DNA of 27,193 bases, taken from assembly GCA_049999805.1 (NCBI GenBank), contig JBNGIO010006283.1, positions 62,001 through 89,193 on the forward strand, in the 5' to 3' direction. Positions within the stretch are counted from its first letter, which is position 1; each line of letters opens with the position of its first letter. A program made the translations under genes and the position numbers. The notes below the pieces were generated by a model. The model had not been told where the DNA came from. It ran no database searches and saw only the letters and a list, made by a program, of their open reading frames with translations. Shown here one piece after another: positions 3,212 to 23,684 of this stretch. The stretch is from Folioceros fuciformis (Eukaryota).

Positions 3212-6200
3212 TCAGGTTATAGCTTCCTGACAGGAAGCTATAGGGGCTTGTGACTTGGTTAGAGGAGCTCTTTGTTCTTTGTAAGCATGACCATCACTGG
3301 GCCTTGACCTGGACATGAAGCCATAAGCCTCCAGCAGCTTTACCAACTGATGTCGAGACAGAGGTTTTGTGAAAAAATCATCCACTCCAGCTGCCAGAAA
3401 CTGATTTCGATCGCTTTCCAGAGCGTTTCCAGTTAATCCGATGATTGGTGTTGTGATCCCCATAGCACGAAGCTGACGAGTGGCCTGCAAGTCACCATTC
3501 ACAAAAGTATAGGGTTTCCTCCTTCAGAGCACACATAAAGGCGCAGGGACGAAAGTCATAGGACGTTCATGGCGGCATTACGGGTGGAAGCAGGGGCAGA
3601 AATTGAATCTCACCTCGTGACCGTCCATGACTGGCATTTCCTTGTCGATCAGAATCATGTCGTATCTCGCTCCATTCCTACACAGTTCCAGAGCCTGCTC
3701 GCCGTTCTCCGCTGTTTCACTGTCCACGTTGAAGCTAGATAGGAGTTTGTGCAGTATCCGGCTATTGACTTGATTGTCCTCCACAACAAGGACTTTGGGG
3801 ATTCGGTCTTCCAGAGAGGCAGTCAAGGCATGACCTGAGCTACATCGGTGCATGGACCTTCCACCCACAAACCTACTAGACAGATCGAAGGTGCTCCGGC
3901 TGGTATGACGCAAATTGCCATGTGCTGCAGTCTCAGTCGATGACGGTGAGGCCAACTCCAGCGGAATAGTGCACAAGAATGTGCTTCCCCTACCTACTTC
4001 GGAATGAACTCCAATTGTACCTCCAGAAAGTTCTACGATTCTGCAGCACGCGCACGGGTGTTAGACCCGATGGTAACCCGAAATAGTCAGCACTGTGCAG
4101 TGGGCACACCATGAACATGGACTTTGGGGGGAGCTTACCTTTTAGAGAAGCATAGGCCAAGACCTGTTCCACCACCCGCTTGGGAGGAAGTAGCATGAAC
4201 CTGCATGTACGGCTCGAAGAGTCTTTTCTGATCTTCTTCACTTATGCCAATCCCAGTGTCCTCTACAGATATTGTGACTCTCACAATCGTGGCCGTCCTG
4301 TCCCCTGCTTGCTGTGTGCATGCCTCCACTTGCGTTGGCCCACCCTCATGAACCTCGGTCGCAGTGCACTCCCCTTGCGAATGCAGATTTGACAGGTCCA
4401 TCACCGCTCCCTCTGTCAACCCAGAATGTGGTTGCGTGCTCAAGCTGTTGCACTTCACACGAAGACAGACCTTCCCCCCACGCGGAGTGAACTTGGCTGC
4501 ATTGGATAGGTAGTTGGCAACGACCTGAGGCATCGACAGGAAGACTTGTCACCAACCCAAGGACTCGTTCCACCGTACACTGAGCAAAGAACCTGCGTGC
4601 ACATCTGCAAGAAGCAAAGGCACTGTAGAGGCAATCGTACCTGTCCGACACGATGCTTGTCACCAAGCACATCCCAACTTGATAGTCGTTCACGAGTTTC
4701 GTCATCTACGGATAAAGTAAACTGTATTCCCTTAGAGTCAAAAGTATCTTGAAAAGACCACACTATGGAGCTTACTAGCTCTCCCATGTTGAAAGGCTGC
4801 TTTTCCAAGTGAAGCTTTCCAGCTTCGATTTTACCTGTAGCCATTGTTACCATCAGAAGAGCATCCAGTGCTTGACAAGGATATGGAGAAATCAGAGGAG
4901 TTTGTAACTATGCACTGACCCATGTCGAGGACATCATTCAGAATGCGAATCATAGAGGACGACGAAGAGTCCATCATCTTGAGAATTTCTCGCTGCTCCT
5001 CTGAAATGTTCCCCGCTAGCATGTGGCCTATACCAAGAACCACCGCATTGAATGGCACTGCAACCAGGACAGGGGCACAACCAACTTGATTGATGCGTAG
5101 GATCGATCACACAACACAACACAACCAGGCCAGGCCGGGCACCCAAAGAGAGGTTGGTAGACAGATCAATGATGCAGGATGGCTGAGGGCCACTTCCGTA
5201 CCTCTAATCTCATGAAATATATAGCTGATGAACTGTCGCATCTTACTAACTTTGTCTGAGTTCTCTCTGTTGATGTCATCCAGCACCTTTGTCATGTGCT
5301 GGACCGCACTGTGCGCCTCCTGTTGCTGGGCAACCATCTTTCCCACGTAGGCCTGCGTGGCTTCAAATCCCGCAAACAGTTCCTTCTCGGCCCGGCTCCT
5401 TAGCAGTATAAGCGGGCATGTCGCCAGCATAGAGAAACCAGCAGTCACGTAGACGGAAGCCAGATGATCGGGAGGGAGGACTCCCGAGCTGTAGTCCTCC
5501 CACGAACAGAGCAGCAGAAACGAGGCGGGAATGAGCAAAGAGAGAGTAAAGGCAGCTTGCCATGCCATGACGGGAGCCGATGATAGAAGACAGGGCAGCC
5601 CGATCATGAGCAGCAAGTCGCGAGGCTGAATGGAGACACAACCCGCAGAACCCGTCAGTTTGCAGGATAACATAGGAGCCAGTGCTGTAACCGCTGGCAC
5701 GGCAAAAAGAAGAGGAGACACGGTTCTGCAAAGCCTTTGGCTGCCATCGTAGTCCACACAGAGACAGATGATGAGAGCTACACAAGAACAGGTTGCTAAT
5801 ATCCCCACCATTGCAAGGGCAATGCTGCGGGCTGGGTCGCGACTGTATACCACCAGCACAGCAGCAATGAGTATGGTGAATGCCCCGAGCACACAAAAAA
5901 CCTCCCCCTTCTGCCTTCTCCAAGTATACGTGCATTGATCTCGCACGCGCTCAAACTCCACATTCCGATCCAAAACTGAGGATTTCCCATCCCCCCGTCC
6001 TCTCTTTCTCTGTACATGACCTCCATCCGCAGCAGGCCCATCGAGCCGTAACGTCTGCCTCAACACTCCTTCCTTGGATTTGCCTGCACCCTCGACTCCG
6101 CCACTCCCCAATTTACACTCCTTCACCTTCACCTTCTCCTTCACCTTCTCCTTCTCCTGCCGCTGCCCCTGCTCCTGCTCCTGCGGCTGCGGCTGCGGCT

Positions 6201-6561
6201 GCGGCTCCTGGTCCGCTCCGCCACCGGAATCGTCACGGGGCAGCACACCATCCCGGCCCATATCACACTCCCCCGTACCAATTGTGGAGCCCGATTTCCC
6301 GGCCTCGGCCGCGCCACAATTGTCGTCCCCTCGACTCCAAACTCCACTCCCCGGCAAGTCCCTGTACAAGCAGGCGGTCGCTACACTCCTGCCCACCGCT
6401 GGAAAAACATCCGCCAAGGTGAATTCGGACGTGCACATTGCGCAACAGATTCGGGCGCAGCAGAAACACGCCAGATCCCGCACCACCGCCCTCAAGTTCG
6501 CAGCACCGCCAAAGACGCTGCTCACCATGTCCCCCACCCGAGCCCCCGGAAGCCAGGCCAA
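3212..6561 (-). CDS. Membrane-bound hybrid histidine kinase (multi-TM sensor, HisKA, HATPase_c, receiver)
   Basis: Exons 6561-5202, 5057-4920, 4834-4641, 4524-4139, 4040-3614, 3484-3212 splice in phase. H-box FISYIFHEIRVPFNAV, N-box QVVANYLSNAAKFT, G1 VEDTGIGI, G2 GGTGLGL, receiver VLVVEDN..DMILIDKEMPVMDG..TKPL. About 6-7 hydrophobic helices precede the H-box. Start and a possible in-frame intron in exon 1 are uncertain. Confidence 0.9.
6120..6205. repeat. Coding hexanucleotide repeats (CCTTCA/CCTTCT and CTGCGG/CTGCTC)
   Basis: Encode QPQPQPQEQEQ and KEKVKEKVKVKE in the kinase N-terminal low-complexity region. Confidence 0.8.
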
Positions 6562-6814: not shown

Positions 6815-6914
6815 NNNNNNNNNNNNNNNNNNNNNNNNNNNNNNNNNNNNNNNNNNNNNNNNNNNNNNNNNNNNNNNNNNNNNNNNNNNNNNNNNNNNNN
6901 NNNNNNNNNNNNNN
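6815..6914. other. Assembly gap (100 N)
   Basis: Run of exactly 100 N; true size unknown. Confidence 0.99.
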
Positions 6915-6960
6915 GATCCGGATCCGACCTGAGCTGCTCTGCGATCCGATTGCGCCTGGC

Positions 6961-7020: not shown

Positions 7021-7491
7021 AGCAGCCGCGTCCAAGGAACAGGAGGAAGTCGGAGCGTCGCCCAGGCAGCCGCAGAGAGAAGATGCCCTCCCCCTTCATC
7101 CTCTCTCCACTTCTCCCATCTTTGTGACGGAATTAACAAGGCCGTAATATGGAGCTGGGGCGTAGCCTCCATGGAACGTTCCCTGTCCGCGGGCATCGGC
7201 AGTTAAGTGCTGTTACGGCCCCGTAAACGCAGCTTATCCCATGGTCAAAGGCAGGTCTCGCAAGCAACGGATAGGCCACGCCTCTTCAGCCCGAGTCGGG
7301 CTGTGGACCCCGCCGCAATCAATCCTTGCCCTCTTACAAGTGGAGTATCCCAAGTGCTTCACCGACACACTCGCTCCACCCACAACAGCCCAGCCCCAGC
7401 CCAGCCCCAGCCCAGCCCCAAACACGTCTCACAACGGTCACCATTTCTCTCCATTTCCATCAAATTATGCACATTAATTCAAATAAATGAT

Positions 7492-7582
7492 CATACATAC
7501 ATACATATATACATATATACATACATACATACATACATACATACATACATACATACATACATACATACATACATACATACAT
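7492..7582. repeat. (CATA)n tetranucleotide microsatellite
   Basis: About 90 nt of catacatac... with a few TATA variants. Confidence 0.95.
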
Positions 7583-8212
7583 GTCTCCGTCCTGGGATAG
7601 AAGAGAAAGAATTTTATTGAAGTCCACTAAGGATGGATTTTTGTCATGGGACTGAATTGTCAAACATTGAAAAGAAAAAAAAGACACTTAATAGCTATTA
7701 TGAGCATAATGCATGATACGTGAGGTTGAATTGTTGCATATGTCGTGTTCTCATCTTCCACATTTGTTTCAAACAAATTCCTATAATAATAGGATCTAGA
7801 AAACAAAAGAATCCCTTGAGTGAAAATTTTTTTCGCCGCCACTAGCCAGATAGCCGGTATATGGCTGTGGAAAACTAGCGTCCACCATCATAAGCTACAT
7901 CATCTGTCGAAATATGAATATATTTTAAATAATAAATATAAAAATAAATTAAAATAAAATTGTAACAAACTTATATGAAATGTTCTCATTCGTACGATGG
8001 TGAATAAGAATAATTCAATTCTATCACCACAATTCTCGATACCATTTAGGACAACAAGCTGCGTGCTCAAATTTGTTGTTGGCTTGGATGCGTTGTTTGT
8101 TTCTTTGCTAATTCGGATGGGCTAGCGCCGGCGATGATAATATAGGATTAACAAAGTTGTTATGTTTGTTTTATGGTACATAAGTGTGATTAAAGAGTAC
8201 CGATAGATATAT

Positions 8213-8312
8213 NNNNNNNNNNNNNNNNNNNNNNNNNNNNNNNNNNNNNNNNNNNNNNNNNNNNNNNNNNNNNNNNNNNNNNNNNNNNNNNNNNNNNNNN
8301 NNNNNNNNNNNN
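8213..8312. other. Assembly gap (100 N) hiding the 5' part of the first PPR gene
   Basis: Run of 100 N; PPR coding sequence starts in frame at the first base after it. Confidence 0.99.
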
Positions 8313-9380
8313 TTACAGAAGGGCAAGCAGCTGCACTCTCAGATCGTCGAAAGAGGACTGCTGGATAACGTAGTGCTGGGCACCTGTCTGGTGGACATGT
8401 ATGCCAAATGCGGTGAAGTGGAGGGTGCACGCCAGGTTTTTGATAGCATGAGCACCAAGAATGTGGTGACTTGGAATGCCTTGATATCTGGGTACGGTGC
8501 CTGTGATGATGGCCAGAGTGCAGTGGCTTTGTTTGAGGAAATGTTAGTTGCCGGTATTGAGCCGGATGTTGCTTCTTTTACCTGCCTTCTAGTAGCATGC
8601 AGTCATGAGGGACTAGTCCGCCAGGGTCGAAAGTACTTCGATTCCATGGCTGAGCAGTATGGCATCAAACCCACTATTGAGCATTACACGTGCATGATTG
8701 ATCTCTTTGGGCGAGCAGGCCATCTAGATGAGGCTGAGCAGATGCTACTGTCATGTGAGGGTCAACTTGATGTTGTGGGATTGACGACTTTGTTGAATGC
8801 ATGCCAAAGTCACGGGGATCTAGAGAGGGCTATGTGGTGTTTTGAACGCATTGTTAGGCTGGACCTTCAGGATTTGGCACCTGCATATGTGCTCATGGCC
8901 AAGGCCTACGCAGATGCAGGTAGGTGGGCCGATGTAGACAGGATTGAAAGACAGAGAAGGGCATCGGGAGCGTACAAGAAACCAGCTGTGGCGAGCATTG
9001 AGGTGAATAAGCAGGTACATAGATTTCTGGTGGGAGAAAGGAGAGAGGATATTTTGCTGAAGGTAGAGAGTACGAATGCGCGTGTGAAGCAGGAAGGAGG
9101 CCACGTACCTCACACGAAGTTGGTGTTGAACCCACTGGGTGAGATGAAAAAGGAAGATGCGCTTTGCGGGCATGCTGAGAAGCTGGCGTTGGCGTTTGGT
9201 CTGTTGAGCACTCCGAGTGGGGCACCTCTTGTGGTAACGAAGAATCTACGCATGTGCAGTGACTGCCACAGTTCCACGGAGATCATGTCAAAGCTTGAAC
9301 AGAGAAGCATCGTCGTGAGGGATGGGTATCGGGTTCATCGATTCGCAAATGGCTGTTGCAGTTGTAACGGTCGACCGTGA
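8313..9380 (+). CDS. PLS-class PPR protein, DYW:KP (GRP-type) domain; copy 1, 5' end in gap
   Basis: Open from the gap edge: partial L, S, P2-L2-S2, E1, E2, KKPAVASIEV (KP box), HAEKLA, CSDCH, terminal CSCNGRP. Confidence 0.92.
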   Translation, partial: LQKGKQLHSQIVERGLLDNVVLGTCLVDMYAKCGEVEGARQVFDSMSTKNVVTWNALISGYGACDDGQSAVALFEEMLVAGIEPDVASFTCLLVACSHEGLVRQGRKYFDSMAEQYGIKPTIEHYTCMIDLFGRAGHLDEAEQMLLSCEGQLDVVGLTTLLNACQSHGDLERAMWCFERIVRLDLQDLAPAYVLMAKAYADAGRWADVDRIERQRRASGAYKKPAVASIEVNKQVHRFLVGERREDILLKVESTNARVKQEGGHVPHTKLVLNPLGEMKKEDALCGHAEKLALAFGLLSTPSGAPLVVTKNLRMCSDCHSSTEIMSKLEQRSIVVRDGYRVHRFANGCCSCNGRP

Positions 9381-9823
9381 GAAAAATGGAGAACGAGCGA
9401 GTGCTCAAATGTCTAGGCGCCAGAGAATATTTCTTGTGGGGCCAATACGGTCGGTGAGGAGCTTCATTCCTGTCCAAATGGATCCATGGACATGGATCGC
9501 TAACAGTGATTCCCGTCTCAGCACAATAGAGACAATTAAAACGACAGACACAGCAGAGACGGTCAGAATCAAAAGAGTCTCTCTTCTTCAGGACTGAAGA
9601 AATTGCCAAATGATTCACTCAATAGAGCGGTATTAATGCTTGGGATACCAGTCCGTCGGGGTTCAAAACTTCAACACCATGTCGAACTGTTTGGTCCGCG
9701 CTCAAAATGTACGTGGAAGACCGTGTCCAGTATACTTCAGGGTGGTATGATCCTGCACAGTGCCCGGGCATCCTGATGCCATGGTCTGTTGTCAGGCTAT
9801 CTTGCGACAGTGGTCCCTAAACG

Positions 9824-12529
9824 ATGGCCACAGTAAGGCAACCGGACCCGTTGTGGACCCAGCAATTGGGTCTGTGTACAGGGATTCTACCAGGAGCTCC
9901 CGCTCACCTCACCTCAGGGGTTCAACCCCTGGCAAACAACCAAGCTTCTAAGTGTAGCCGTGCAAGATGCAGCACAGGCCCAGTTTCGAGAAAAGTTGTG
10001 GGTGGGGACGGGTTTTGCAGCGATGGGCGTTGCCAGGAGCAGGAGCACCTGTGGCAACAATTGTTCTTGGACCCTACTATGTGGTGGGATTACAGAAGAG
10101 ATAAGAGGAGCTCCCGATCGCCGGATTTCCGGAGGAAGGGGTCCGGCGAGGTCCTGTGGTTAAACAATTTGTGTAAGCCAGCTTGGGTTGATGAGCAGCT
10201 CGTTTCCTTGGATATGCAGATGGGTCACGGTCACGGTGCCCTCCCTTTCAAGCCGGGTTCTCCAGAGAAGCTGGAACTTGGCACTCGTGCAGGATTGGAA
10301 ATGGACGTGGTAACGCCTAGAACCGTGAGCATCCTATGCCAGCAGAGAAAGCTTTCTGAAGCCATTGCAGCCCTGGAATCTCTGCTGCTGACAGACTTTG
10401 CTATTTCGCAGTCTTTGCTTTGCACTGTGCTCAAACTGTGTACAACTAAGAAGGATTTCGCTGTGGGGCGACGAGTTCATGATCTGTGTGTGAAGCTTGG
10501 GTACGAGTCGATTGCGTACATGGGGAACCATATCCTGCGCATGTATGCAAGTGGAGGAAGGCTAGAGGAGGCCATGGATGTGTTCACCAGGGTAGGAAAA
10601 CCAGATGTTTTCACGTGGTCTTCCATCATCTCTGCACATGCTAAACATGGGAAACCCAATGAGGCAGTACAACTGTACCATGAGATGCGCAGGTCGGGAG
10701 TGAAGCCGGATGCTCACGTCTTTGCAGCTGCCCTTCAAGCTTGTGCATTTGCCTCTGACTTGGAATCTGGCAGGAAAGTGCACGGCGACGTATTGCAGAG
10801 TGCCATCCATCCTGACTTGTTTGTTGGGGCCATCCTGGTGGACATGTATGCAAAATGTGGTGAACTGAGAGACGCACGCCTGGTTTTCGAAAGCTTGCCC
10901 AAGAAGGATGTGGTGACATGGACGGCCCTGATTGCTGGCTACGCACACCAAGGTCTCGGGCAAGAGGCGCTGGCTCTCTATGAGCAAATGGAGCAGGAGG
11001 GCCTGATTGTGGCTGACCACGTTACTTTCGCTTGCCTTCTGAAGGCCTGTGCTAGCGTTGGTGCCTTACAGAAGGGCAGGCATCTGCACTCACAGATTGT
11101 GGAACGAGGAAAGCTGGACAATGTACTGGTGGGAAATTGCCTGGTGGACATGTATGCAAAATGTGGCGAACTGAAATGTGCACGAGAAGTTTTTGAAAGC
11201 CTGGCCATGAAGGATGTCGTGACATGGAATGCGCTCTTATCTGGGTATGCAAGGTGTGGTGAACTGGCAAATGCACGCCTGGTTTTTGACAGCATGAACA
11301 CAAAGGATGTAGTGTCATGGAACGTCCTCATCGCTGGGTATGAACAGCAAGAACTTGGACAAGAGTCGCTTGTTCTGTATGGGCAAATGGAGGAAGCAGG
11401 CCTGCTTTTGGCTGACGATATTACTTATGCTTGCGTTCTGAAGGCCTGCGGGAGCACCGGTGCCTTACAGAAGGGCAGGCAGCTGCACTCGCAGATTGTG
11501 AAAAGGGGACAGCTGGACAGCGTAGTATTAGGCACCTGCCTGGTGGACATGTATGCAAAATGTGGTGAACTGGGAGATGCACGCCAGGTTTTTGATAGCA
11601 TGAACTCAAAGAATGTGGTGACATGGAATGCCCTGATATCTGGGTATGGTGCTTGCGATGATGGTCAGAGGGCACTAGCTTGTTTTCGTGAGATGTTAGT
11701 TGCCGGGATTCTGCCAGATGCTTCCACCTTCAGTTGCCTTCTTGTAGCATGCAGTCATGAGGGGCTGGTGAACGAGGGTCGCAAGCTCTTTGATTCCATG
11801 GCTGAAGAGCATGGCATCAAACCTGCTATTGAGCATTACACCTGCATGATTGATCTTCTTGGCCGGGCAGGCCATTTAGACGAGGCAGAGAAGATGCTAT
11901 TGTCATGTAAAGGCGAATCCGACGTTGTTGGATTGACGACTTTGTTGAATGCCTGCAAAAGGCACGGGGATATAGAGAGGGCGATTTGGTGCTTTGAAAG
12001 CATCGTTAGGCTGGCCCCCCAGGATGCGCGCCCGTACGTGCTCATGGCCAATGCCTATGCAGATGCAGGTAGGTGGACCGATGTAGACAGGATAGAAATG
12101 GAGAGAAGGGTAGTAGGAGCTAACAAGAAACCTGCAGTTGCCACCATTGAGGTGAAAGAGGAGGTACATACATTTTTGGTGGGAGAAAGGAGGGAGGATA
12201 TTGCGCTCAAGATAGAGAGCACGAATGCACGTCTGAAGGAGGAGGGAGGCCATGCACCTCACACACAGCTGGTGTTGAAGCCCCTGGGTGAGAAGGAGAA
12301 GGAAGATGCGCTTTGTGGCCATGCTGAGAAGCTAGCTCTGGCATTCGGTCTGTTGAACACTCCGAGTGGGACACCTCTGGTGGTGACGAAGAATCTACGC
12401 ATGTGCAGTGACTGCCACAGTTCCACTGAGATCATGTCAAGACTAGAGCAGAGACACATTGTTGTAAGAGACGGATACCGTGTGCATCGATTCGCAAATG
12501 GCTGTTGCAGTTGTAAGGGTAGACCCTGA
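9824..12529 (+). CDS. PLS-class PPR protein, DYW:KP (GRP-type), with N-terminal OSB-type PDF motif; copy 2
   Basis: Intronless 901-aa ORF: leader, PDF motif, about 16 repeats (L-S-P-L-S-P-L-S-SS-P-L-S-P2-L2-S2 after one degenerate repeat), E1, E2, KKPAVATIEV, HAEKLA, CSDCH, CSCKGRP. Confidence 0.95.
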   Translation: MATVRQPDPLWTQQLGLCTGILPGAPAHLTSGVQPLANNQASKCSRARCSTGPVSRKVVGGDGFCSDGRCQEQEHLWQQLFLDPTMWWDYRRDKRSSRSPDFRRKGSGEVLWLNNLCKPAWVDEQLVSLDMQMGHGHGALPFKPGSPEKLELGTRAGLEMDVVTPRTVSILCQQRKLSEAIAALESLLLTDFAISQSLLCTVLKLCTTKKDFAVGRRVHDLCVKLGYESIAYMGNHILRMYASGGRLEEAMDVFTRVGKPDVFTWSSIISAHAKHGKPNEAVQLYHEMRRSGVKPDAHVFAAALQACAFASDLESGRKVHGDVLQSAIHPDLFVGAILVDMYAKCGELRDARLVFESLPKKDVVTWTALIAGYAHQGLGQEALALYEQMEQEGLIVADHVTFACLLKACASVGALQKGRHLHSQIVERGKLDNVLVGNCLVDMYAKCGELKCAREVFESLAMKDVVTWNALLSGYARCGELANARLVFDSMNTKDVVSWNVLIAGYEQQELGQESLVLYGQMEEAGLLLADDITYACVLKACGSTGALQKGRQLHSQIVKRGQLDSVVLGTCLVDMYAKCGELGDARQVFDSMNSKNVVTWNALISGYGACDDGQRALACFREMLVAGILPDASTFSCLLVACSHEGLVNEGRKLFDSMAEEHGIKPAIEHYTCMIDLLGRAGHLDEAEKMLLSCKGESDVVGLTTLLNACKRHGDIERAIWCFESIVRLAPQDARPYVLMANAYADAGRWTDVDRIEMERRVVGANKKPAVATIEVKEEVHTFLVGERREDIALKIESTNARLKEEGGHAPHTQLVLKPLGEKEKEDALCGHAEKLALAFGLLNTPSGTPLVVTKNLRMCSDCHSSTEIMSRLEQRHIVVRDGYRVHRFANGCCSCKGRP
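10043..10201 (+). other. PDF motif of the type found in organellar ssDNA-binding OSB proteins, inside the PPR ORF
   Basis: EHLWQQLFLDPTMWWDYRRDKRSSRSPDFRRKGSGEVLWLNNLCKPAWVDEQL matches the recalled OSB consensus W..FF.NP..WWDNR..K....PDFKHK.TGEALW.....P.WV..QL. Confidence 0.85.
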
Positions 12530-12935
12530 GGATAACCAAGAAGTGGTCACGTATCGATGTGTTTCTGAGGATGACCGCAAATGGCTACGAGCTCCATCTC
12601 TGTCCAAAGCCAGGCACTTGAACATGGATTGCAACCACTCATCCACCTCCCATGATCACGGAGTGATCTAGACTCATCAGAATCGAATGCATTTCTCGCG
12701 TTGTAGAACATGAAAGCTGTGTCGGTAATAGGGGTCCAACGAACGATGCTCGACGTTTCAGTCTTGGTTCAAGAGCGTTGGTACCACCAGGTGTTAAATT
12801 TCTCTGCGTACCACAGCCCAGTGGCGCCTATGAAGGCGTCTCCGACATCCTCCACGGTGTTGTGGTGATGCGTTGTAGCTGGGAGTCCTGCCATGGTCTG
12901 CTGTTAGTGTCATCTCCCGACAGGGGTCCTGAACG

Positions 12936-15236
12936 ATGGCCACGGTATGGCATCTGGACCCGTTGTGGACCCAACAACCGGCTGTGTGTACAGGGAGTCT
13001 ACGAAGAGGTCCCGCTCACCACATCTTAGGGAGTCAAAGCCTGGCAAGCGAAGCCTCCAGGTACAGCAGTGGAAGGAGCCCAGCACTCCCGAGAAAGTGT
13101 GTGGGTGGGGAGGGATCTTCCAGGGATGGCCGTTGCCAGGAGCAGGAGCACTTGTCTGGCGAGGTCCTGTGGATAAACGACATGTTGAGGCCAACTTGGG
13201 TTGATGAGCAGCTCGTATCCTTGGATTTGAATGTCGGTCAAGGAGGCTCTCCTTTGAAGTCGAGGTCTCCGGATAAGGATAAGCCTGAACTTGGCAGGCG
13301 TGCAGGGTCGGAAATTGGCGTGGTGATGGCTGGAACCGTGAGCATGCTGTGTGAGCAGGGTAAGCTTTGTGAAGCTGTTGGAGCCCTGGAATCTCTGGCG
13401 CAGACAGACTCTGCTATTCCTCGGTCTCTGTTTTGCACAGTGTTGAAACTGTGTACAGCGAAGAAGGATCTGGTTGTGGGGCGACGAGTTCATCATCTCA
13501 TCGTCAAAATCGGGTACGAGGCAATCGCATACGTGGGGAACCATATCCTGCGCATGTATGCAAGTGGGGGCCGGCTAGAGGAGGCCATGGATGTGTTCAC
13601 CAGGGTAGGCAAACCAGATGTTTTCACCTGGTCTTCCATCATCTCTGCACATACTAAGCATGGGAAACCGAATGAGGCCGTACAACTGTACCATGAAATG
13701 CGCAGGTCCGGTGTGAAGGCGGATCCTCACGCCTTCGTGGCTGCTCTTCAAGCTTGTGCATTTGCCGCTGATTTAGAGTCTGGCAGACAAGTACACTGTG
13801 ATGTGGTGCGAAGTGGCATTCCTGCTGACTCGTTTGTGGGCGCCAGCCTGGTGGACATGTACGCGAAATGTGGTGAACTGGGAGATGCACGCCTGGTTTT
13901 TGACAACATGGCCACAAAGAATGTGGTGACATGGAATAGCCTGGTAGCTGGGTATGCAAAATGTGGTGAACTGGGAGATGCACGCCAGGTTTTTGACAGC
14001 ATGGTCACCAAGGACGTGGTGTCATGGAATGCCATGATTGCGGGGTATGCACAGCATGGACTTGGCCAAGAGTCGCTGCTTCTCTATGGACAAATGCAAC
14101 GAGATGGCCTCATTTTGGCCAACCATGTTACCTTTACTTGCCTTCTGAAGGCCTGTGGAAGCACTGGTGCGTTGCAGAAGGGCAGGCAGCTGCACTCACA
14201 GATTGTGGGAAGAGGACTGCTGGATAACATAGTCTTGGGCAACTGCCTGGTGGACATGTATGCCAAATGTGGTGAAATGGAAGAGGCACGCCAGGTTTTT
14301 GACAGCATGAGCACAAAGAGTGTGGTGTCGTGGAATGCGCTCATATCTGGGTATGGCACTTGTGATGATGGTCGGAGAGCACTAGCTTGCTTTGAGGAGA
14401 TGTTAGTTGCCGGCGTTCAGCCTGATAGTGCTACTTTTAGCTGCCTTCTAGCAGCATGCAGTCATGAGGGACTGGTCCATGAGGGTCGCAAGCACTTTGA
14501 TTCCATGGCTGGACAGCATGGCATCAAACCTACTATTGAGCATTACACCTGCATGATCGATCTTCTTGGGCGTGCGGGCCATTTAGAAGAGGCAGAGGAA
14601 ATGTTACTGTCATGTGAGGGCCAAAGTGATGTTGTAGGATTGAGGTCTTTGTTGAATGCCTGCAAAAACCATGGCGATATAGAGAGGGCGAGGTGGTGTT
14701 TTGAAAATATTGTGAAGCTGGCCCCCCAGGATGCGCCTGCATATGTGCTCATGGCCAATGCCTACGCAGATGCCGGGAGGTGGACCGATGTGGACAGCGT
14801 TGAGACAAGGAGAAGGGTGGCGGGAGCTAACAAAAAACCAGCTGTGGCGACCATTGAGGTTGATGAGAAGGTGCATAGATTTCTGGTGGGAGAAAGGAGG
14901 GAGGATATTGCGCTCAAGGTAGAGAGCACGAATTCACGTCTGAAGCAGGAAGGGGGCCACGTACCTCACACAAAGCTCGTGTTGAAGCCTCTTGGTGAGA
15001 AGGAAAAGGAAGATGTGCTTTGTGGTCATGCCGAGAAGCTGGCTTTGGCGTTTGGTCTGTTGAACACTCCCAGTGGGACACCTCTGGTGGTGACGAAGAA
15101 TCTACGCATGTGCAGTGACTGCCACAGTTCCACGCAGATCATGTCAAGGCTTGAAAAGAGACACATCGTGGTCAGGGATGGATACCGTGTGCATCGATTC
15201 GCGAATGGGAGCTGCAGTTGTAAGGGTCGACCGTGA
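12936..15236 (+). CDS. PLS-class PPR protein, DYW:KP (GRP-type); copy 3, PDF core deleted
   Basis: Intronless 766-aa ORF colinear with copy 2 but lacking 30 aa of the PDF motif and one P-L-S triplet; same KP box, HAEKLA, CSDCH and CSCKGRP end. Confidence 0.95.
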   Translation: MATVWHLDPLWTQQPAVCTGSLRRGPAHHILGSQSLASEASRYSSGRSPALPRKCVGGEGSSRDGRCQEQEHLSGEVLWINDMLRPTWVDEQLVSLDLNVGQGGSPLKSRSPDKDKPELGRRAGSEIGVVMAGTVSMLCEQGKLCEAVGALESLAQTDSAIPRSLFCTVLKLCTAKKDLVVGRRVHHLIVKIGYEAIAYVGNHILRMYASGGRLEEAMDVFTRVGKPDVFTWSSIISAHTKHGKPNEAVQLYHEMRRSGVKADPHAFVAALQACAFAADLESGRQVHCDVVRSGIPADSFVGASLVDMYAKCGELGDARLVFDNMATKNVVTWNSLVAGYAKCGELGDARQVFDSMVTKDVVSWNAMIAGYAQHGLGQESLLLYGQMQRDGLILANHVTFTCLLKACGSTGALQKGRQLHSQIVGRGLLDNIVLGNCLVDMYAKCGEMEEARQVFDSMSTKSVVSWNALISGYGTCDDGRRALACFEEMLVAGVQPDSATFSCLLAACSHEGLVHEGRKHFDSMAGQHGIKPTIEHYTCMIDLLGRAGHLEEAEEMLLSCEGQSDVVGLRSLLNACKNHGDIERARWCFENIVKLAPQDAPAYVLMANAYADAGRWTDVDSVETRRRVAGANKKPAVATIEVDEKVHRFLVGERREDIALKVESTNSRLKQEGGHVPHTKLVLKPLGEKEKEDVLCGHAEKLALAFGLLNTPSGTPLVVTKNLRMCSDCHSSTQIMSRLEKRHIVVRDGYRVHRFANGSCSCKGRP

Positions 15237-18766: not shown

Positions 18767-19834
18767 TCAGACGGTGGCGAGGAGCTTGTTGTTAGTCCAT
18801 TCCGCAGTCTTAGCCATGCCGTCCTCAAAAGACACGGGAGGTTCATACCCCAACTCCGTCTGCGCTTTGGTGCTGTGACTGGTAATGGAGCAGGCCAGAG
18901 GCAGCAGCATCTGCCTGGAGATGTACCTCTTGGCCACATGATTCACAACAGGAATGTTCTCCAGAACCGTAGCCAGAGACCAGAGCACCTTTCCCGACAC
19001 CTCCGACGACGGCACCTTCACCCGAGGCAACCCGGCCCGCACATACTTGGTGAAGAACTCCCGGATCCCCACGGGGCTCTCCCTGTCAAACATGTTGTAA
19101 ACCTCCCCGCTCTTGCCTCGCAGCGCGGCGACCCTCAGCCCATAGCAGAGATTGTCGATGAACGTGGTGACGGTCTCGGTATCGTCCGGCTTGATCCACC
19201 TGAAGGTCCCCATCCCGATGCTGTCTCGCAGAATGGGGATGACGGAGGTGTCCCCGGGCCCCCACACGAACCCCGGTCGCACAGACACCGTCCTCAGCTC
19301 CGATGCCCCGTTTCTGTCCCTGCCCGCCTCCACCACCAGGTCCTCCGCCATGGCCTTGGAGCGCGCGTACAAAGCCCATTCCGGGACTCGCTTGGGGCTC
19401 TCCTCCGTCGTGCCCTTCATGTCCGCCGGATTCTGGTTGTACATGACGGTGAAGGAGGAGATGTAGAGGAAGGTGGGCACCTTAGCGGCCCGGGCGGCCC
19501 GCAGTGCATTGGCCGTGCCTTGCACGGTGGCGTGGTAGCACTGCTGCCAGGATCCCTGCAGGCTCACCCACGCCGCTGCGTGGTACACCAGCTCGCATTC
19601 CGCCATGGCCGCCGTCATGGCGTCCACAGAGTCCAGGTCCCCTCGCACCAGGCTGCAGTGATCCGAGGCCTGTGCGCCCCTGCTGGCCGCGGCGCTGCCC
19701 GCCGCCTCCAGCATCGCCTCGTCCGCGGCCGGGGACCGGGACAAGGCGACCACCGTGTCTCCATGGGTTCCGATCAGAAACTTCAGGAGAGCTTTGCCTA
19801 TGAATCCAGAGCCCCCTGTCAGAAACACCTTCAT
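18767..19834 (-). CDS. NAD(P)-dependent epimerase/dehydratase (extended SDR, 3-beta-HSD-like)
   Basis: Intronless ORF; first in-frame ATG at 19834 gives MKVFLTGGSGFIG (Rossmann TGxxGxxG), YHAAA, catalytic YARSK, VRPGFVWGPGD, ELGYEP. Confidence 0.9.
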   Translation of the reverse strand: MKVFLTGGSGFIGKALLKFLIGTHGDTVVALSRSPAADEAMLEAAGSAAASRGAQASDHCSLVRGDLDSVDAMTAAMAECELVYHAAAWVSLQGSWQQCYHATVQGTANALRAARAAKVPTFLYISSFTVMYNQNPADMKGTTEESPKRVPEWALYARSKAMAEDLVVEAGRDRNGASELRTVSVRPGFVWGPGDTSVIPILRDSIGMGTFRWIKPDDTETVTTFIDNLCYGLRVAALRGKSGEVYNMFDRESPVGIREFFTKYVRAGLPRVKVPSSEVSGKVLWSLATVLENIPVVNHVAKRYISRQMLLPLACSITSHSTKAQTELGYEPPVSFEDGMAKTAEWTNNKLLATV

Positions 19835-19985: not shown

Positions 19986-22900
19986 ATGGAGCTAGGTGCC
20001 CTACGCCCGGCAGGGCTGTTGCCCTTAGGAGTCTCTGAGAAGGGGTTTTGCAAAGAAGGGCACCAAGGGAAGGCGATGGTCTCTGGTAATGTGAATCAGG
20101 AGAGCACTGTGCCGTCGTTGCACGTTTACAAGCAGCTGTTGCAGGATTGCACGAAGAGGAGGGCACTTGGTGAGGCCATCCAGATACACGCACACTTGGA
20201 GAGACACGGGTTGGAATCGAGGTTGGGGGACTTGGTGGTTGCCACGCTGGTAAACTGTGGAAGCCTGTCACATGCACTGCGCGTGTTTGGGAAGCTAGCT
20301 TATCGGAGTTCCTTCTCCTGGACAGCCATCATCTCGGGGTACATCAATTCTGGGCAGTGGCGGGAGGCCCTTTCATGTTATGGGCAGATGCAGCAGGAAG
20401 GTGTTAGACCCAGCTGCCGTACGTTTGTCAAGTTGCTGAAGGCGTGTTGTAAGTTGGAAGACTTGGAGCAGGTGAAGCACATCCACGCTGACATTCGGAG
20501 GCAAGGTTCTGAGTCTGACCCCTTTGTTGGGAGCACTCTGATTAGTGTGTATGCCAAGTGTGGAAGCATCGTGGATGCTCTACAGGTGTTCGAGAGATTG
20601 CCTGAGCGGGATGTGGTGTCATGGAATGCGATGCTTGCTGCATATGCGCGGAAGGACAGAGGGGACGCTGCCTTGCAGCTTTTTGGGCAGATGTTAGAGG
20701 AGAAAGTTGATCCGGATGCACGCACCTTTGTCAGCGCCGTCCAAGCGTGTAGCAGTGCTGCCGAAAAGGAGGAGGCTATGGGTGAGCAGAATGTGAAAGT
20801 GGAATCACTTAAAACGGGAAGGGAGCTACATGCTGCAGCTATTTTGAATGGTTTCGACTCTGATGTTTTCGTTGGGAGTACGTTAGTCAGCATGTATGCA
20901 AAGTGTGGGAGCCTTGAGGATGCTCAGTGGGTGTTCGATAGATTGTCAGAACGTGATGTGGTGTCTTGGAACTCGATGATTGCAGCCTATGCGCAGCAGA
21001 ACCGAGGAGATAAGGCGTTGCATCTCTACGTGCAAATGCAAGCTGAAGGCATCACTCCCAACGTCCGGACCTTTGTTAGTGCTTTACAGGCATGTAGCAC
21101 TGTTGCAGAACAGGAGGAAACTACGATAGTACATGGGTGTGATGTTAAGGTGGAGTCTCTCCGGATAGGGAAGGAAATTCACTCGTATGCTACGAGAAGA
21201 GGTTGTGAGACGGATGTTTTTGTAGGAAATACGCTGGTCAGCATGTACGCAAGGTGCGGCAGCATCAGGGATGCACAGCAGGTGTTTGAAAGGTTGTTGC
21301 AGCGCAATGAGGTGTCATGGACTGCCATTATTGCAGCTTATGCTCAGCAGGGAAGAGGAGAAGAAGGATTGCAGGTATATGAGCAGATGCAAGAAGCTGG
21401 GGTCAGGCCTGATGCTCGAACTTTTGTCAGTGCTTTGCAGGCCTGTGGTTCAGTTGCAGAATCTGAGGATGGTGCACTCGTGGATGCGCGAATCGTGAAA
21501 GTAGGGTCGCTGCAGAAGGGCAAGGAACTGCATGCTACAGCCGCAGCAGCTCTGAGTGAGTTTCAATCAGATTTATTCCTCAGTAGTACTTTGGTTAGTA
21601 TTTACGGTAAGTGTGGGAGCATCACAGATGCCGAAGAAGTCTTCTACAAGCAGTCCCCTCGCAACATCGTGCTGTGGAATGCAATGCTCGCAGTGTATGC
21701 CCAGCAGGACAAAGCAGGTGAAGCTTTGCAAGTTTATCAGCAAATGCAGATGGAAGGAGTAATGCCAAATGCTCGAACTTTTGTGAGTGTCCTTCAAGCG
21801 TGTGGGACACTTGCCGAACAGGAAAGTGCAGCGGCTGTGCACAGGCAGGGAGGCACCATGGAGTCATTGCTGAAGGGGAAAGAGATCCACTCGGACGCTA
21901 GTTTGAGGGGTTTGGACTCTGACGTTTTTGTGGGGAACACTCTGGTTAGAATGTACGCAAAGTGTGGATGCATCCGGGATGCACAACAAGTTTTTGATAG
22001 ATTGTTCCAGCGTACTGTCGTGTCATGGAATGCGTTGCTGGTAGCTTACGCTGAGCACGGGGAAGGAGCAAAAGCCTTAGAGATCTATCGGCAGATGAGA
22101 GCAGAAGGAGTGCGACCAGATGCTCGAACCTTTGTGTGCGCTCTTCAAGCCTGTGGCATGATGTCAGAAGCAGAGAAATCTGTCCTTGTAAATGGTCAGA
22201 CTGTGAAGGAGGAATCACTGCATCTGGGCAGGGCCATCCATGGTGAACTTGCAAGCTTGGGTTTGGAGTCGGACGTGTTTGTCGGTGTCACACTTCTCAG
22301 CATGTATGCCAAATGCGGGAGCTTTGTGGATGCCCAGAAGGTATTTGACACGATGTGTCCTCGTGATGTGGTGGCATGGACTGCCATGATTGCTGCCTAC
22401 GCCCAAGATGGTCAAGGGCATAAAAGTCTGGAGCTATATCGGCAAATGCAAGAGACGGATGTCAGGCCAGATGCTTTGACCTACGTCCGAGCTCTCCAAG
22501 CCTGTGCTATCGTGGGGTTGAAGGAGAGAAGTAGGCTAATCGATGGGCAGAGTGTGAAAGCGGATTCTCTGCAACAGGGAAGAGAAATCCATGCTGATGT
22601 AACAAACATGGGTTTTGATTCAGATGCTTTTGTAGGCAGCACCCTGGTCAACATGTACGCAAACTGTGGGAGCATAAGGGATGCAGAGCAGGTGTTTGGC
22701 AGCATGCCGCAACGGGATGTGGTTGCATGGACTGCCATGATTGCAGCTTATGCTGCACAAAACCAAGGAACAAAGGCTTTGCAACTCTTCTCTCGGATGC
22801 AAGCCGAAGGTGTGAAGCCAGAGGAGCCCACGTTCCTGTGTGTCCTGGAAGCCTGCAGCAACGCAGGATCCCTTGCCATATGCAAGCAGGCGCACCAAAG

Positions 22901-23684
22901 TCTGGTGGAGAACGGCTTCGAGTACAGTCTCTCGGTGGCTAACAGCCTCATCCATGCATATGGAAAATGCGGGAGCATGGATAATGCTCAGCTCGTTTTC
23001 GATTCCATCCGCCAGCCGGACGTAGTGTCTTGGACTGCTCTGATCGCTGGATACGCTCGAGAAGGTCGCTGTAGGATGAGCATGCAGTGCTACGACCGCA
23101 TGTGCCTTACAGCTGTAAGCCCTAACGGGGTTACCTTCCTGGCGCTCCTGTCCGCATGCAGCCACGCCGGGCTAGTGGACAAGGGTCTGGAGTACTTCGA
23201 GGGCATGACCAGAGACCACCGCATTGCTCCGGAGCTGGAGCATTTTGCCTGTGTGATCGATCTCGTCGGCCGTGCCGGCCTCTTCCGCAAAGCAGAAGAA
23301 CTGCTTTCGCAAATGCCTATGCAACCAGATGTCGCCGTGTGGTTGTGTCTGCTAGGAGCGTGCAGGAAACATGCTAACCTAGCGCTGGGAAAGCGTGCCT
23401 TTGACGGAGTCGTTGCTCTGGAGCCGAAGGAAGCCGCCGCCTATGTGATCATGTCGAACATGTATTCTGAATCCGGCTTGCCGGATTCCGCGGAGGAGAT
23501 CGAGGTCCTGAGGCAGGCCGCAGGAGCGTGGAAGGAGCCGGGCAAGAGCTGGATGGAGCACGGGAATGAGGTTCACACGTTTCTTGCTGGAGACCACAGG
23601 CATCGACAGGAAGTATTGCTGCATGGCCTCGTGAAGAAACTCAGCGCGGATCTGCGAGAGGCAGGGTTGCAATCAGTAGACTAA
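19986..23684 (+). CDS. Large PLS-class PPR protein, E+ type, with extended (LL-type) L motifs
   Basis: Intronless, about 1232 aa from the first ATG; regular P-L-S triplets, P2-L2-S2, E1, E2, PG box KEPGKSWME, then a stop before any HxE or CxxC motif. Confidence 0.93.
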   Translation: MELGALRPAGLLPLGVSEKGFCKEGHQGKAMVSGNVNQESTVPSLHVYKQLLQDCTKRRALGEAIQIHAHLERHGLESRLGDLVVATLVNCGSLSHALRVFGKLAYRSSFSWTAIISGYINSGQWREALSCYGQMQQEGVRPSCRTFVKLLKACCKLEDLEQVKHIHADIRRQGSESDPFVGSTLISVYAKCGSIVDALQVFERLPERDVVSWNAMLAAYARKDRGDAALQLFGQMLEEKVDPDARTFVSAVQACSSAAEKEEAMGEQNVKVESLKTGRELHAAAILNGFDSDVFVGSTLVSMYAKCGSLEDAQWVFDRLSERDVVSWNSMIAAYAQQNRGDKALHLYVQMQAEGITPNVRTFVSALQACSTVAEQEETTIVHGCDVKVESLRIGKEIHSYATRRGCETDVFVGNTLVSMYARCGSIRDAQQVFERLLQRNEVSWTAIIAAYAQQGRGEEGLQVYEQMQEAGVRPDARTFVSALQACGSVAESEDGALVDARIVKVGSLQKGKELHATAAAALSEFQSDLFLSSTLVSIYGKCGSITDAEEVFYKQSPRNIVLWNAMLAVYAQQDKAGEALQVYQQMQMEGVMPNARTFVSVLQACGTLAEQESAAAVHRQGGTMESLLKGKEIHSDASLRGLDSDVFVGNTLVRMYAKCGCIRDAQQVFDRLFQRTVVSWNALLVAYAEHGEGAKALEIYRQMRAEGVRPDARTFVCALQACGMMSEAEKSVLVNGQTVKEESLHLGRAIHGELASLGLESDVFVGVTLLSMYAKCGSFVDAQKVFDTMCPRDVVAWTAMIAAYAQDGQGHKSLELYRQMQETDVRPDALTYVRALQACAIVGLKERSRLIDGQSVKADSLQQGREIHADVTNMGFDSDAFVGSTLVNMYANCGSIRDAEQVFGSMPQRDVVAWTAMIAAYAAQNQGTKALQLFSRMQAEGVKPEEPTFLCVLEACSNAGSLAICKQAHQSLVENGFEYSLSVANSLIHAYGKCGSMDNAQLVFDSIRQPDVVSWTALIAGYAREGRCRMSMQCYDRMCLTAVSPNGVTFLALLSACSHAGLVDKGLEYFEGMTRDHRIAPELEHFACVIDLVGRAGLFRKAEELLSQMPMQPDVAVWLCLLGACRKHANLALGKRAFDGVVALEPKEAAAYVIMSNMYSESGLPDSAEEIEVLRQAAGAWKEPGKSWMEHGNEVHTFLAGDHRHRQEVLLHGLVKKLSADLREAGLQSVD

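Follow-up and report, generated by a model that had tools for sequence, protein, structure and literature searches.

An OSB-type PDF motif ahead of the repeat array of a GRP-type pentatricopeptide repeat protein, a candidate U-to-C editing factor, in Folioceros fuciformis

We report here on a stretch of DNA of 27,193 nucleotides from Folioceros fuciformis (assembly GCA_049999805.1, contig JBNGIO010006283.1, positions 62,001 to 89,193 of the forward strand), which is referred to below as the window and in whose coordinates all positions are given. An open reading frame (ORF) on its forward strand encodes a pentatricopeptide repeat (PPR) protein, a candidate organelle RNA editing factor, which carries between its N-terminal leader and its first repeat a module known from the OSB proteins, plant organellar proteins that bind single-stranded DNA. 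This module, the PDF motif, has been defined as a stretch of about 50 amino acids with a Pro-Asp-Phe signature (PMC6963530). Comparison with the OSB proteins leaves us with next to no doubt that positions 10043-10201 encode a complete OSB-type PDF motif. What is new is the combination: an editing factor of the PPR type with an accessory domain for which we found no description in the literature searched, and which also occurs, unannotated, in ferns. The gene is the second of three related genes and is called copy B, its neighbours being copies A and C; its ATG at 9824 is the first after an in-frame TAA directly upstream. The parts of the gene are as follows (aa, amino acids; HMM, hidden Markov model; pLDDT, predicted local distance difference test; dN/dS, ratio of non-synonymous to synonymous substitution rates):

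9824-12529, + strand: ORF of copy B, 901 codons, uninterrupted, with the PDF motif and the PPR array in one frame
9824-10042, + strand: N-terminal leader, aa 1-73, a presumed organelle targeting peptide from its composition, pLDDT and dN/dS
10043-10201, + strand: PDF motif, aa 74-126; the HMM alignment covers aa 71-131 (10034-10216)
10226-10303, + strand: low-confidence linker, aa 135-160 (pLDDT below 50), from the PDF module to the first PPR helix
10316-12151, + strand: PPR array of the PLS class with E motif, aa about 165-776 (Pfam PPR, PPR_1, PPR_2, PPR_3, E_motif)
12248-12526, + strand: deaminase-like domain of the DYW:KP type with terminal GRP, aa 809-901 (Pfam DYW_deaminase)

The translation of 10043-10201 (aa 74-126) is EHLWQQLFLDPTMWWDYRRDKRSSRSPDFRRKGSGEVLWLNNLCKPAWVDEQL. 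It fits the pattern W..F.DP..WWD.R..K....PDF..K..GE.LW.....P.WV, which an earlier reading of the window from its letters (the sequence-only reading) had placed between the leader and the PPR array, and it is the sole such motif across the six frames of the window, by regular expression as well as with an HMM on six-frame pieces of at least 30 aa. An OSB-only HMM was built from 155 PDF motifs, taken from 115 proteins of the OSB1 family, with the corresponding region of Arabidopsis thaliana OSB1, and not the window, as seed. With this model copy B scored 69.8 bits (E = 1.7e-20 over 2536 targets), the alignment running through profile positions 3-62 of 63, while the best of 2000 shuffled versions of the motif reached 12.8 bits; among the six-frame pieces of the window only the remnant of the motif in copy C scored besides copy B. 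Such a model from OSB proteins was the check which the sequence-only reading had named, and the objection that there might be no significant match has thus fallen away. By BLASTP the copy B stretch is 40% identical over 62 aa to residues 183-241 of A. thaliana OSB1 (P0178, 261 aa; E = 2e-14). A phmmer search with the 62-aa stretch at 10031-10216 against 1.84 billion cluster representatives returned 546 proteins at the cut-off of E ≤ 1e-3, 139 of them at E ≤ 1e-10 and 18 at E ≤ 1e-30; names, domain scans and PPR comparisons given below refer to the best 150 of these 546. OSB names recur among them: P0061 is named "OSB1, mitochondrial-like" and P0068 "organellar single-stranded DNA binding protein 3", both being direct matches, P0014 (Sinapis) has relatives named OSB1 which include the A. 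thaliana protein P0178, P0013 is Amborella OSB3, and the P0137 cluster includes Panicum OSB3/OSB4. All 13 of the columns conserved to at least 80% over 374 PDF motifs are kept in copy B, and its deviations are mild (WWDYR for the consensus WWDNR and PDFRRK for PDFKHK). Eight of the 53 motif residues are aromatic (W, F or Y) and a basic loop holds nine K/R. The claim of true homology with the OSB PDF is therefore borne out by HMM, BLASTP and phmmer alike. Three further searches were without result: a word-index protein search with the motif region found no match, not even copy B itself (hornwort proteomes seem to be poorly represented there), a search of the ESM Atlas gave no usable match, and a metagenome scan with aa 60-259 gave 59 pattern matches of which none was confirmed by tblastn.

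Two assembly gaps lie close to the gene, at 6816-6915 and 8214-8313, and an assembly or gene-model artefact that joined an OSB fragment to a PPR gene has to be considered together with a match by mere chance. We regard both as extremely improbable. The E-value and the shuffle control speak against chance; the motif belongs to a single unbroken ORF and is 1.7 kb away from the closest gap; copy C still has both flanks of the motif and its final third; and the same architecture is found in independent fern genomes and transcriptomes.

The remainder of the protein is that of an editing factor. Pfam PPR matches 12 stretches (E = 4e-77) and is followed by the E_motif at aa 714-776 (E = 2.4e-12), the succession of tandem repeats and E motif by which PLS-class PPR editing factors are recognised, and DYW_deaminase matches aa 809-899 (E = 4.5e-32). 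The C-terminus reads ...GHAEK...CSDCH...CSCKGRP. Hornwort DYW:KP proteins have been divided into two subgroups, DRH and GRP, named from their last three residues, and the alanine of HAE is described as specific to DYW:KP (PMC9478123). The features which mark the GRP subgroup (HAE, CxxC and GRP as the last residues) are all present in copy B, as HAE, CSDCH and a terminal KGRP, which makes the protein a candidate U-to-C editing factor of the GRP type, as the sequence-only reading had supposed. Judged by these sequence features copy B belongs to the PLS-class PPR proteins and, within DYW:KP, to the hornwort subgroup GRP. A further stretch of copy B, KKPAVATIEV, is what we take to be the "KP box". 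No source of U-to-C editing activity other than the DYW:KP proteins is known to us, and these proteins are being engineered as tools. Over the whole protein Pfam finds only PPR/TPR, E and DYW families, and none in aa 1-169; no SSB/OB-fold domain is matched, and aa 1-66 are predicted to be disordered. Lacking an OB fold, copy B is thus not an OSB protein. The leader is composed of S, T, A, G or P at 32 of its 73 positions, with 7 basic and 4 acidic residues, and compared with copy C it has a dN/dS of 0.98, i.e., it evolves neutrally. Neutral evolution is usual for targeting peptides, and from its sequence we infer that the leader is one that directs the protein to an organelle.

The structure of the module was predicted with AlphaFold2 in two runs, one with the motif alone on a 22-row alignment and one with the N-terminal 359 aa aligned with copy C and seven other PDF+PPR homologues, mostly from ferns. 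The motif alone was modelled with a pLDDT of 92.6 and a predicted template modelling score (pTM) of 0.75, as a helix (motif residues 2-13), short strands (18-20, 33-35 and 41-42) around the basic loop, and a second helix (52-60). The model of the N-terminal 359 aa falls into four parts:

aa 1-66: leader, pLDDT about 30, disordered
aa 70-130: PDF module (module span aa 68-134), pLDDT 81-91, folded
aa 135-160: flexible linker of about 25 residues, pLDDT below 50
from aa 165: regular PPR helix pairs, pLDDT about 90

This profile leads us to describe the PDF as a discrete folded module (helix, beta-hairpin-like part, helix) which is predicted to be tethered by a flexible linker to the N-terminal side of the RNA-binding array. 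The linker region (aa 132-170) has a dN/dS of 0.98 with respect to copy C. Among solved structures the best sequence relative of the module had an E-value of 0.59, and Foldseek against solved structures gave no match at E ≤ 0.001.

The occurrence of the fusion outside the window was addressed by comparing the PPR part of copy B with the best phmmer matches of the motif. PPR repeats were detected in nine of the 150 (P0008, P0070, P0094, P0106, P0118, P0130, P0135, P0147 and P0149), and a tenth case, P0136, has a PDF motif after which a PPR motif begins, and its source names it "pentatricopeptide repeat protein". Six of the nine are named as proteins of the ferns Ceratopteris richardii, Adiantum capillus-veneris and Pteridium aquilinum. 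The sources are two genes of Ceratopteris richardii (KAH7415342/KAH7415344 and KAH7429238), two genes of Adiantum (KAI5076972 and KAI5061374), two Pteridium transcriptome ORFs (EukProt) and, for the rest, Logan and JGI assemblies. In all of the PDF+PPR matches the PDF, in one to three copies, begins 2-98 residues from the N-terminus and stands ahead of the PPR repeats. In Pteridium the PDF and PPR parts are contiguous within a single transcript ORF, so the fusion is transcribed in ferns. The DYW part of copy B found no match among the best 150 proteins, four of the nine PDF+PPR proteins being C-terminally incomplete (P0106, P0118, P0135 and P0147), and Pfam DYW_deaminase was absent from the six PDF+PPR proteins scanned. 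A special link of the PDF to DYW:KP proteins is not supported by the matches listed: none of the nine other PDF+PPR proteins, with the four incomplete ones included, has a DYW domain, and copy C, which is of the GRP type, has lost the core of the motif.

A FastTree phylogeny of the 374 PDF motifs, weak since it is based on only 63 columns, grouped ten of the 14 motifs that are linked to PPR repeats within a clade of 16 members (local support 0.857), and the copy B motif has PPR-linked motifs as its six nearest neighbours. The same clade includes the motifs of Amborella OSB3, of Panicum OSB3/4 and of two unnamed proteins, and four PPR-linked motifs fall outside it (two of P0070, and those of P0136 and P0147). 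This pattern suggests, as far as such short sequences allow, one old PDF-PPR fusion common to hornworts and ferns and one or two further fusions. Among the other 136 matches listed, Pfam SSB occurs in 34 and is the only partner domain that recurs. One Coptis chinensis protein (P0044, KAF9616283.1) has three PDF motifs joined to a kinesin motor domain, and one PDF match also fits Pfam PTS_2-RNA (Tpt1/KptA; E = 1.1e-5); either case may be a merged gene model or point to an additional partner of the PDF.

Many of the PDF proteins have 2-13 matched stretches, corresponding to 2 to 10 near-complete copies. Three of those with 9-13 tandem stretches are P0002, P0003 (Kingdonia uniflora, 1160 aa) and P0005, whereas a 2026 survey of OSB proteins gives up to five PDF domains, a number far below this (PMC13393729). 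Tandem arrangements of this kind would be compatible with cooperative assemblies, and AtOSB2 is reported to be a tetramer (PMC6963530), which raises the question of whether the PDF in copy B might be a surface for protein-protein contacts or self-association, recruiting an OSB or other PDF protein or forming oligomers, and not a binder of nucleic acid. We consider this quite improbable, as oligomerisation is not linked to the PDF motif itself by any evidence and the aromatic residues and basic loop of the motif are as expected of a surface that contacts nucleic acid.

Copy B lies within an array of three GRP-type PPR-DYW:KP genes which are arranged head to tail at 8314-15236 with a spacing of about 3.1 kb. 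The other two members are:

8314-9380, + strand: copy A, 3' part of the ORF (Pfam PPR, E_motif and DYW_deaminase), GRP-type
12936-15236, + strand: copy C, 766 aa, ORF intact, PDF core deleted (Pfam PPR, E and DYW_deaminase)

The synonymous divergence (dS) among the copies is 0.47-0.63, with about 0.47 between copies B and C, and the array is thus an old tandem and not a recent duplication. The 5' part of copy A, where a PDF would be expected, is lost in the assembly gap (N run at 8214-8313). The DNA of copies B and C can be aligned from about 45 bp 5' of the ATG, and over the motif copy C shows a single in-frame gap of 90 bp, which removes the 30 codons W77-G106 of copy B and with them the WWD...PDF core; positions 13154 and 13155 adjoin the junction on its two sides. 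Both flanks survive in copy C together with the final third of the motif, the remnant SGEVLWINDMLRPTWVDEQL... being encoded at 13155-13229 and scoring 12.1 bits with the OSB-only HMM over profile positions 39-62 only. Copy C is the derived, deleted form, since it is the full motif of copy B that matches PDFs across plants. In copy C the PPR array is shorter as well, by about 102 residues (alignment columns 353-455) or roughly three repeats, so that the RNA target of copy C should differ from that of copy B. Between copies B and C dN/dS is 0.23 for the PPR array, 0.09 for the DYW domain and 0.67 for the remnant, which has only 25 codons. A lost intron or exitron was also tried as an explanation of the 90-bp difference and rejected: the gap reads TGG...GGG, or GG..GT when shifted by one base, without a clean GT..AG, and the in-frame GT..AG reading nearby spans 84 nt instead of 90. 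No splice-like joint over the 90-bp stretch was present among the joints listed from contigs of related DNA, beyond which stand 432 further joints, and rare splicing of the stretch in copy B may nevertheless occur.

These contigs come from sequencing runs with DNA related to the window. They are not assignable to individual genes and are uninformative on transcription, start sites and splicing, and no RNA run containing the gene was among the runs listed. One run (X1) contained 56% of the sampled words, at low depth and with intergenic DNA covered, and is probably DNA from the same organism or one very close to it. From other organisms, three runs yielded many contigs of at least 88% identity over the copy B gene, the motif included; in the four runs position 10133 was covered by 12, 23, 21 and 21 contigs and position 10123 by 8, 6, 11 and 5. 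The majority differences listed inside the motif (10123, 10133 and 10168, in the codons of P100, R104 and N115) are synonymous in three of three cases, with 230 further differences standing beyond those listed. These sequences hint at numerous and constrained PDF-bearing paralogues in the related genomes.

The history of copy C invites the interpretation that the PDF is an inherited and largely dispensable appendage, which may be removed together with the presequence or may not affect editing, and which is heading to loss. In favour of this, copy C has kept an intact ORF at a dS of about 0.47 to copy B after deletion of the motif core, the short remnant has a dN/dS of 0.67, and designer GRP editors function without any PDF (PMC9478123). 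The motif of copy B, however, retains all of its conserved residues despite what is presumably a very old split from the PDF+PPR proteins of ferns, is confidently predicted to fold independently, and is covered by many related contigs in which the majority differences listed are silent. On balance an appendage without much function seems unlikely to us, if far from negligible.

On its RNA a PPR array is oriented with the N-terminal repeats toward the 5' side, and the DYW domain comes to lie at the edited base. We propose that the PDF domain, placed in a GRP-type editor after the targeting leader and ahead of the PPR repeats, would survive import into the organelle and bind single-stranded nucleic acid without sequence preference, and, because PPR N-termini face the 5' side of the RNA, would contact the RNA immediately upstream of the element recognised by the array. 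Such a contact could raise affinity or hold the upstream segment unfolded, and the PDF would then represent a built-in helper in lineages without the MORF helpers of seed plants, to which MORF proteins are restricted (PMC13386178). It is known that the PDF motif of AtOSB1 is sufficient for binding of single-stranded DNA (ssDNA) and that its OB fold is not (PMC6963530). We give this proposal, an imported and sequence-independent accessory binder upstream of the PPR footprint, somewhat less than an even chance of being right, and several observations count against it. OSB1 and OSB2 favour ssDNA over double-stranded DNA or RNA (PMC4166229), so that RNA binding by the PDF is an extrapolation. The consensus-designed GRP proteins KP2 and KP3, which have no PDF, edit U to C in Escherichia coli at about 26% and 22% (PMC9478123), so the PDF is not needed for catalysis. 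Purifying selection acts on copy C although 30 codons of its motif are gone, so that at least one family member can do without the module. The mature protein may also be cleaved after the PDF motif, and VIA-align against 48,161 chains gave a best Z of 3.4, hence no clue from the fold to a mode of binding.

A different proposal is that the PDF of copy B binds ssDNA as in OSBs and tethers the editor to nucleoids or transcription bubbles, thereby coupling editing to transcription or concentrating the factor at nascent RNA. Binding of ssDNA, above RNA, is the sole reported activity of the PDF (PMC6963530, PMC4166229), and a long flexible linker would let the module act away from the RNA bound by the array. 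But nothing in the present analysis puts copy B at nucleoids, copy C has been retained without the motif, and the PPR editing factors of seedless plants act alone on RNA in E. coli (PMC6397227, PMC9478123); we consider a DNA tether rather unlikely. The sequence-only reading was right on the identity of the module, and what it offered on function (a tether to nucleoids, the melting of RNA structure, activity on ssDNA) is inference.

No description of a PDF-PPR fusion was found in the literature search, where the PDF appears as a feature of OSB proteins in the portions of the sources available; an earlier mention is possible, e.g., in Zaegel 2006, in Gutmann 2020 or in supplements. The 2026 OSB survey required a PDF as well as an OB-fold domain in every protein that it retained (PMC13393729), and PDF+PPR proteins would have been discarded by this filter. 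A kingdom-wide survey of editing factors from the same year catalogues PPR, MORF, ORRM and OZ fusions, and the terms "PDF" and "OSB" have no occurrence in its main text (PMC13386178); the Anthoceros genome paper likewise has no mention of PDF or OSB in this sense. Since there is no Pfam model for the PDF and OSB surveys demand an OB fold, the module is invisible to current domain surveys. The statement of the sequence-only reading that the PDF lies outside the standard PLS-E-DYW architecture agrees with this lack of a Pfam model and of any mention for PPR proteins in the literature found.

If the module proves to be functional its significance would go beyond one gene. PPR-DYW editors are seen as two-part machines in which the array reads the RNA and the DYW domain changes the base, and a conserved PDF would be a third module; the motif itself would appear as a portable module from an organelle DNA-maintenance protein and not as an OSB-specific tail. 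A bolder view, which we put forward as a speculation with the chances against it, is that hornworts and ferns share, in the PDF-PPR fusions, an ancient class of factors for organelle RNA processing in which the PDF does in cis what helpers of the MORF/ORRM type do in trans, and that natural GRP U-to-C editors need it for full efficiency. In that event the absence of the PDF would explain part of the low yield of designer GRP editors and its addition would be a simple route to improve them, which makes the question relevant to specialists in organelle RNA editing as well as to the engineering of U-to-C editors.

The other features of the window are the following:

5107-6528, - strand: ORF of 473 aa that includes several hydrophobic segments and a low-complexity stretch rich in Gln, Glu and Lys; not matched by any Pfam family at E ≤ 1e-5
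6816-6915 and 8214-8313: assembly gaps of 100 N
about 7490-7585: (ACAT)n microsatellite
7600-8213: AT-rich stretch, unlike its GC-rich surroundings, directly upstream of the truncated copy A
18767-19834, - strand: ORF of 355 aa, 3-beta-hydroxysteroid dehydrogenase / NAD-dependent epimerase family (Pfam E = 2.3e-29)
19986-23684, + strand: PLS-class PPR ORF of 1232 aa with an E motif at aa 1129-1191, no DYW domain and no PDF motif

The AT-rich stretch at 7600-8213 is possibly an insertion or a mis-join. The long repeat units of the 1232-aa PPR protein resemble those of the fern PDF+PPR proteins, and the dehydrogenase/epimerase ORF is divergent from this PPR gene, with about 150 bp between the two ORFs.

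Copy B can be compared with several known systems. With OSB1-4 of Arabidopsis and their orthologues it has in common the module of about 50-60 aa with the pattern LW..F..P..WWD.R..K....PDF..K.....LW.....P.W; in OSBs, however, the PDF is C-terminal to an SSB-like OB fold and often repeated, while in copy B a single PDF is N-terminal to a PPR array and carries the LWLN..KP.WVD signature common to PPR-linked PDF copies. With the hornwort GRP PPR-DYW:KP proteins it shares the PLS array, the E motif, the DYW deaminase fold, HAE and CxxC and the terminal GRP, but for this group no N-terminal accessory domain is described in the available text, and the designer proteins consist of the PLS array and the C-terminal domains only (PMC9478123). 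The MORF, ORRM and OZ helpers have domains unrelated to the PDF, the MORFs being confined to seed plants, and yet follow the same idea of a sequence-specific PPR array aided by a second module that binds nucleic acid or protein. Alike in layout are the fern PDF+PLS PPR proteins, which have the PDF motifs nearest to that of copy B, in which the order of leader, PDF (1 to 3 copies), linker and PLS-class PPR array is the same, and whose full-length members end in a partial E motif whereas copy B ends in a GRP-type DYW:KP domain.

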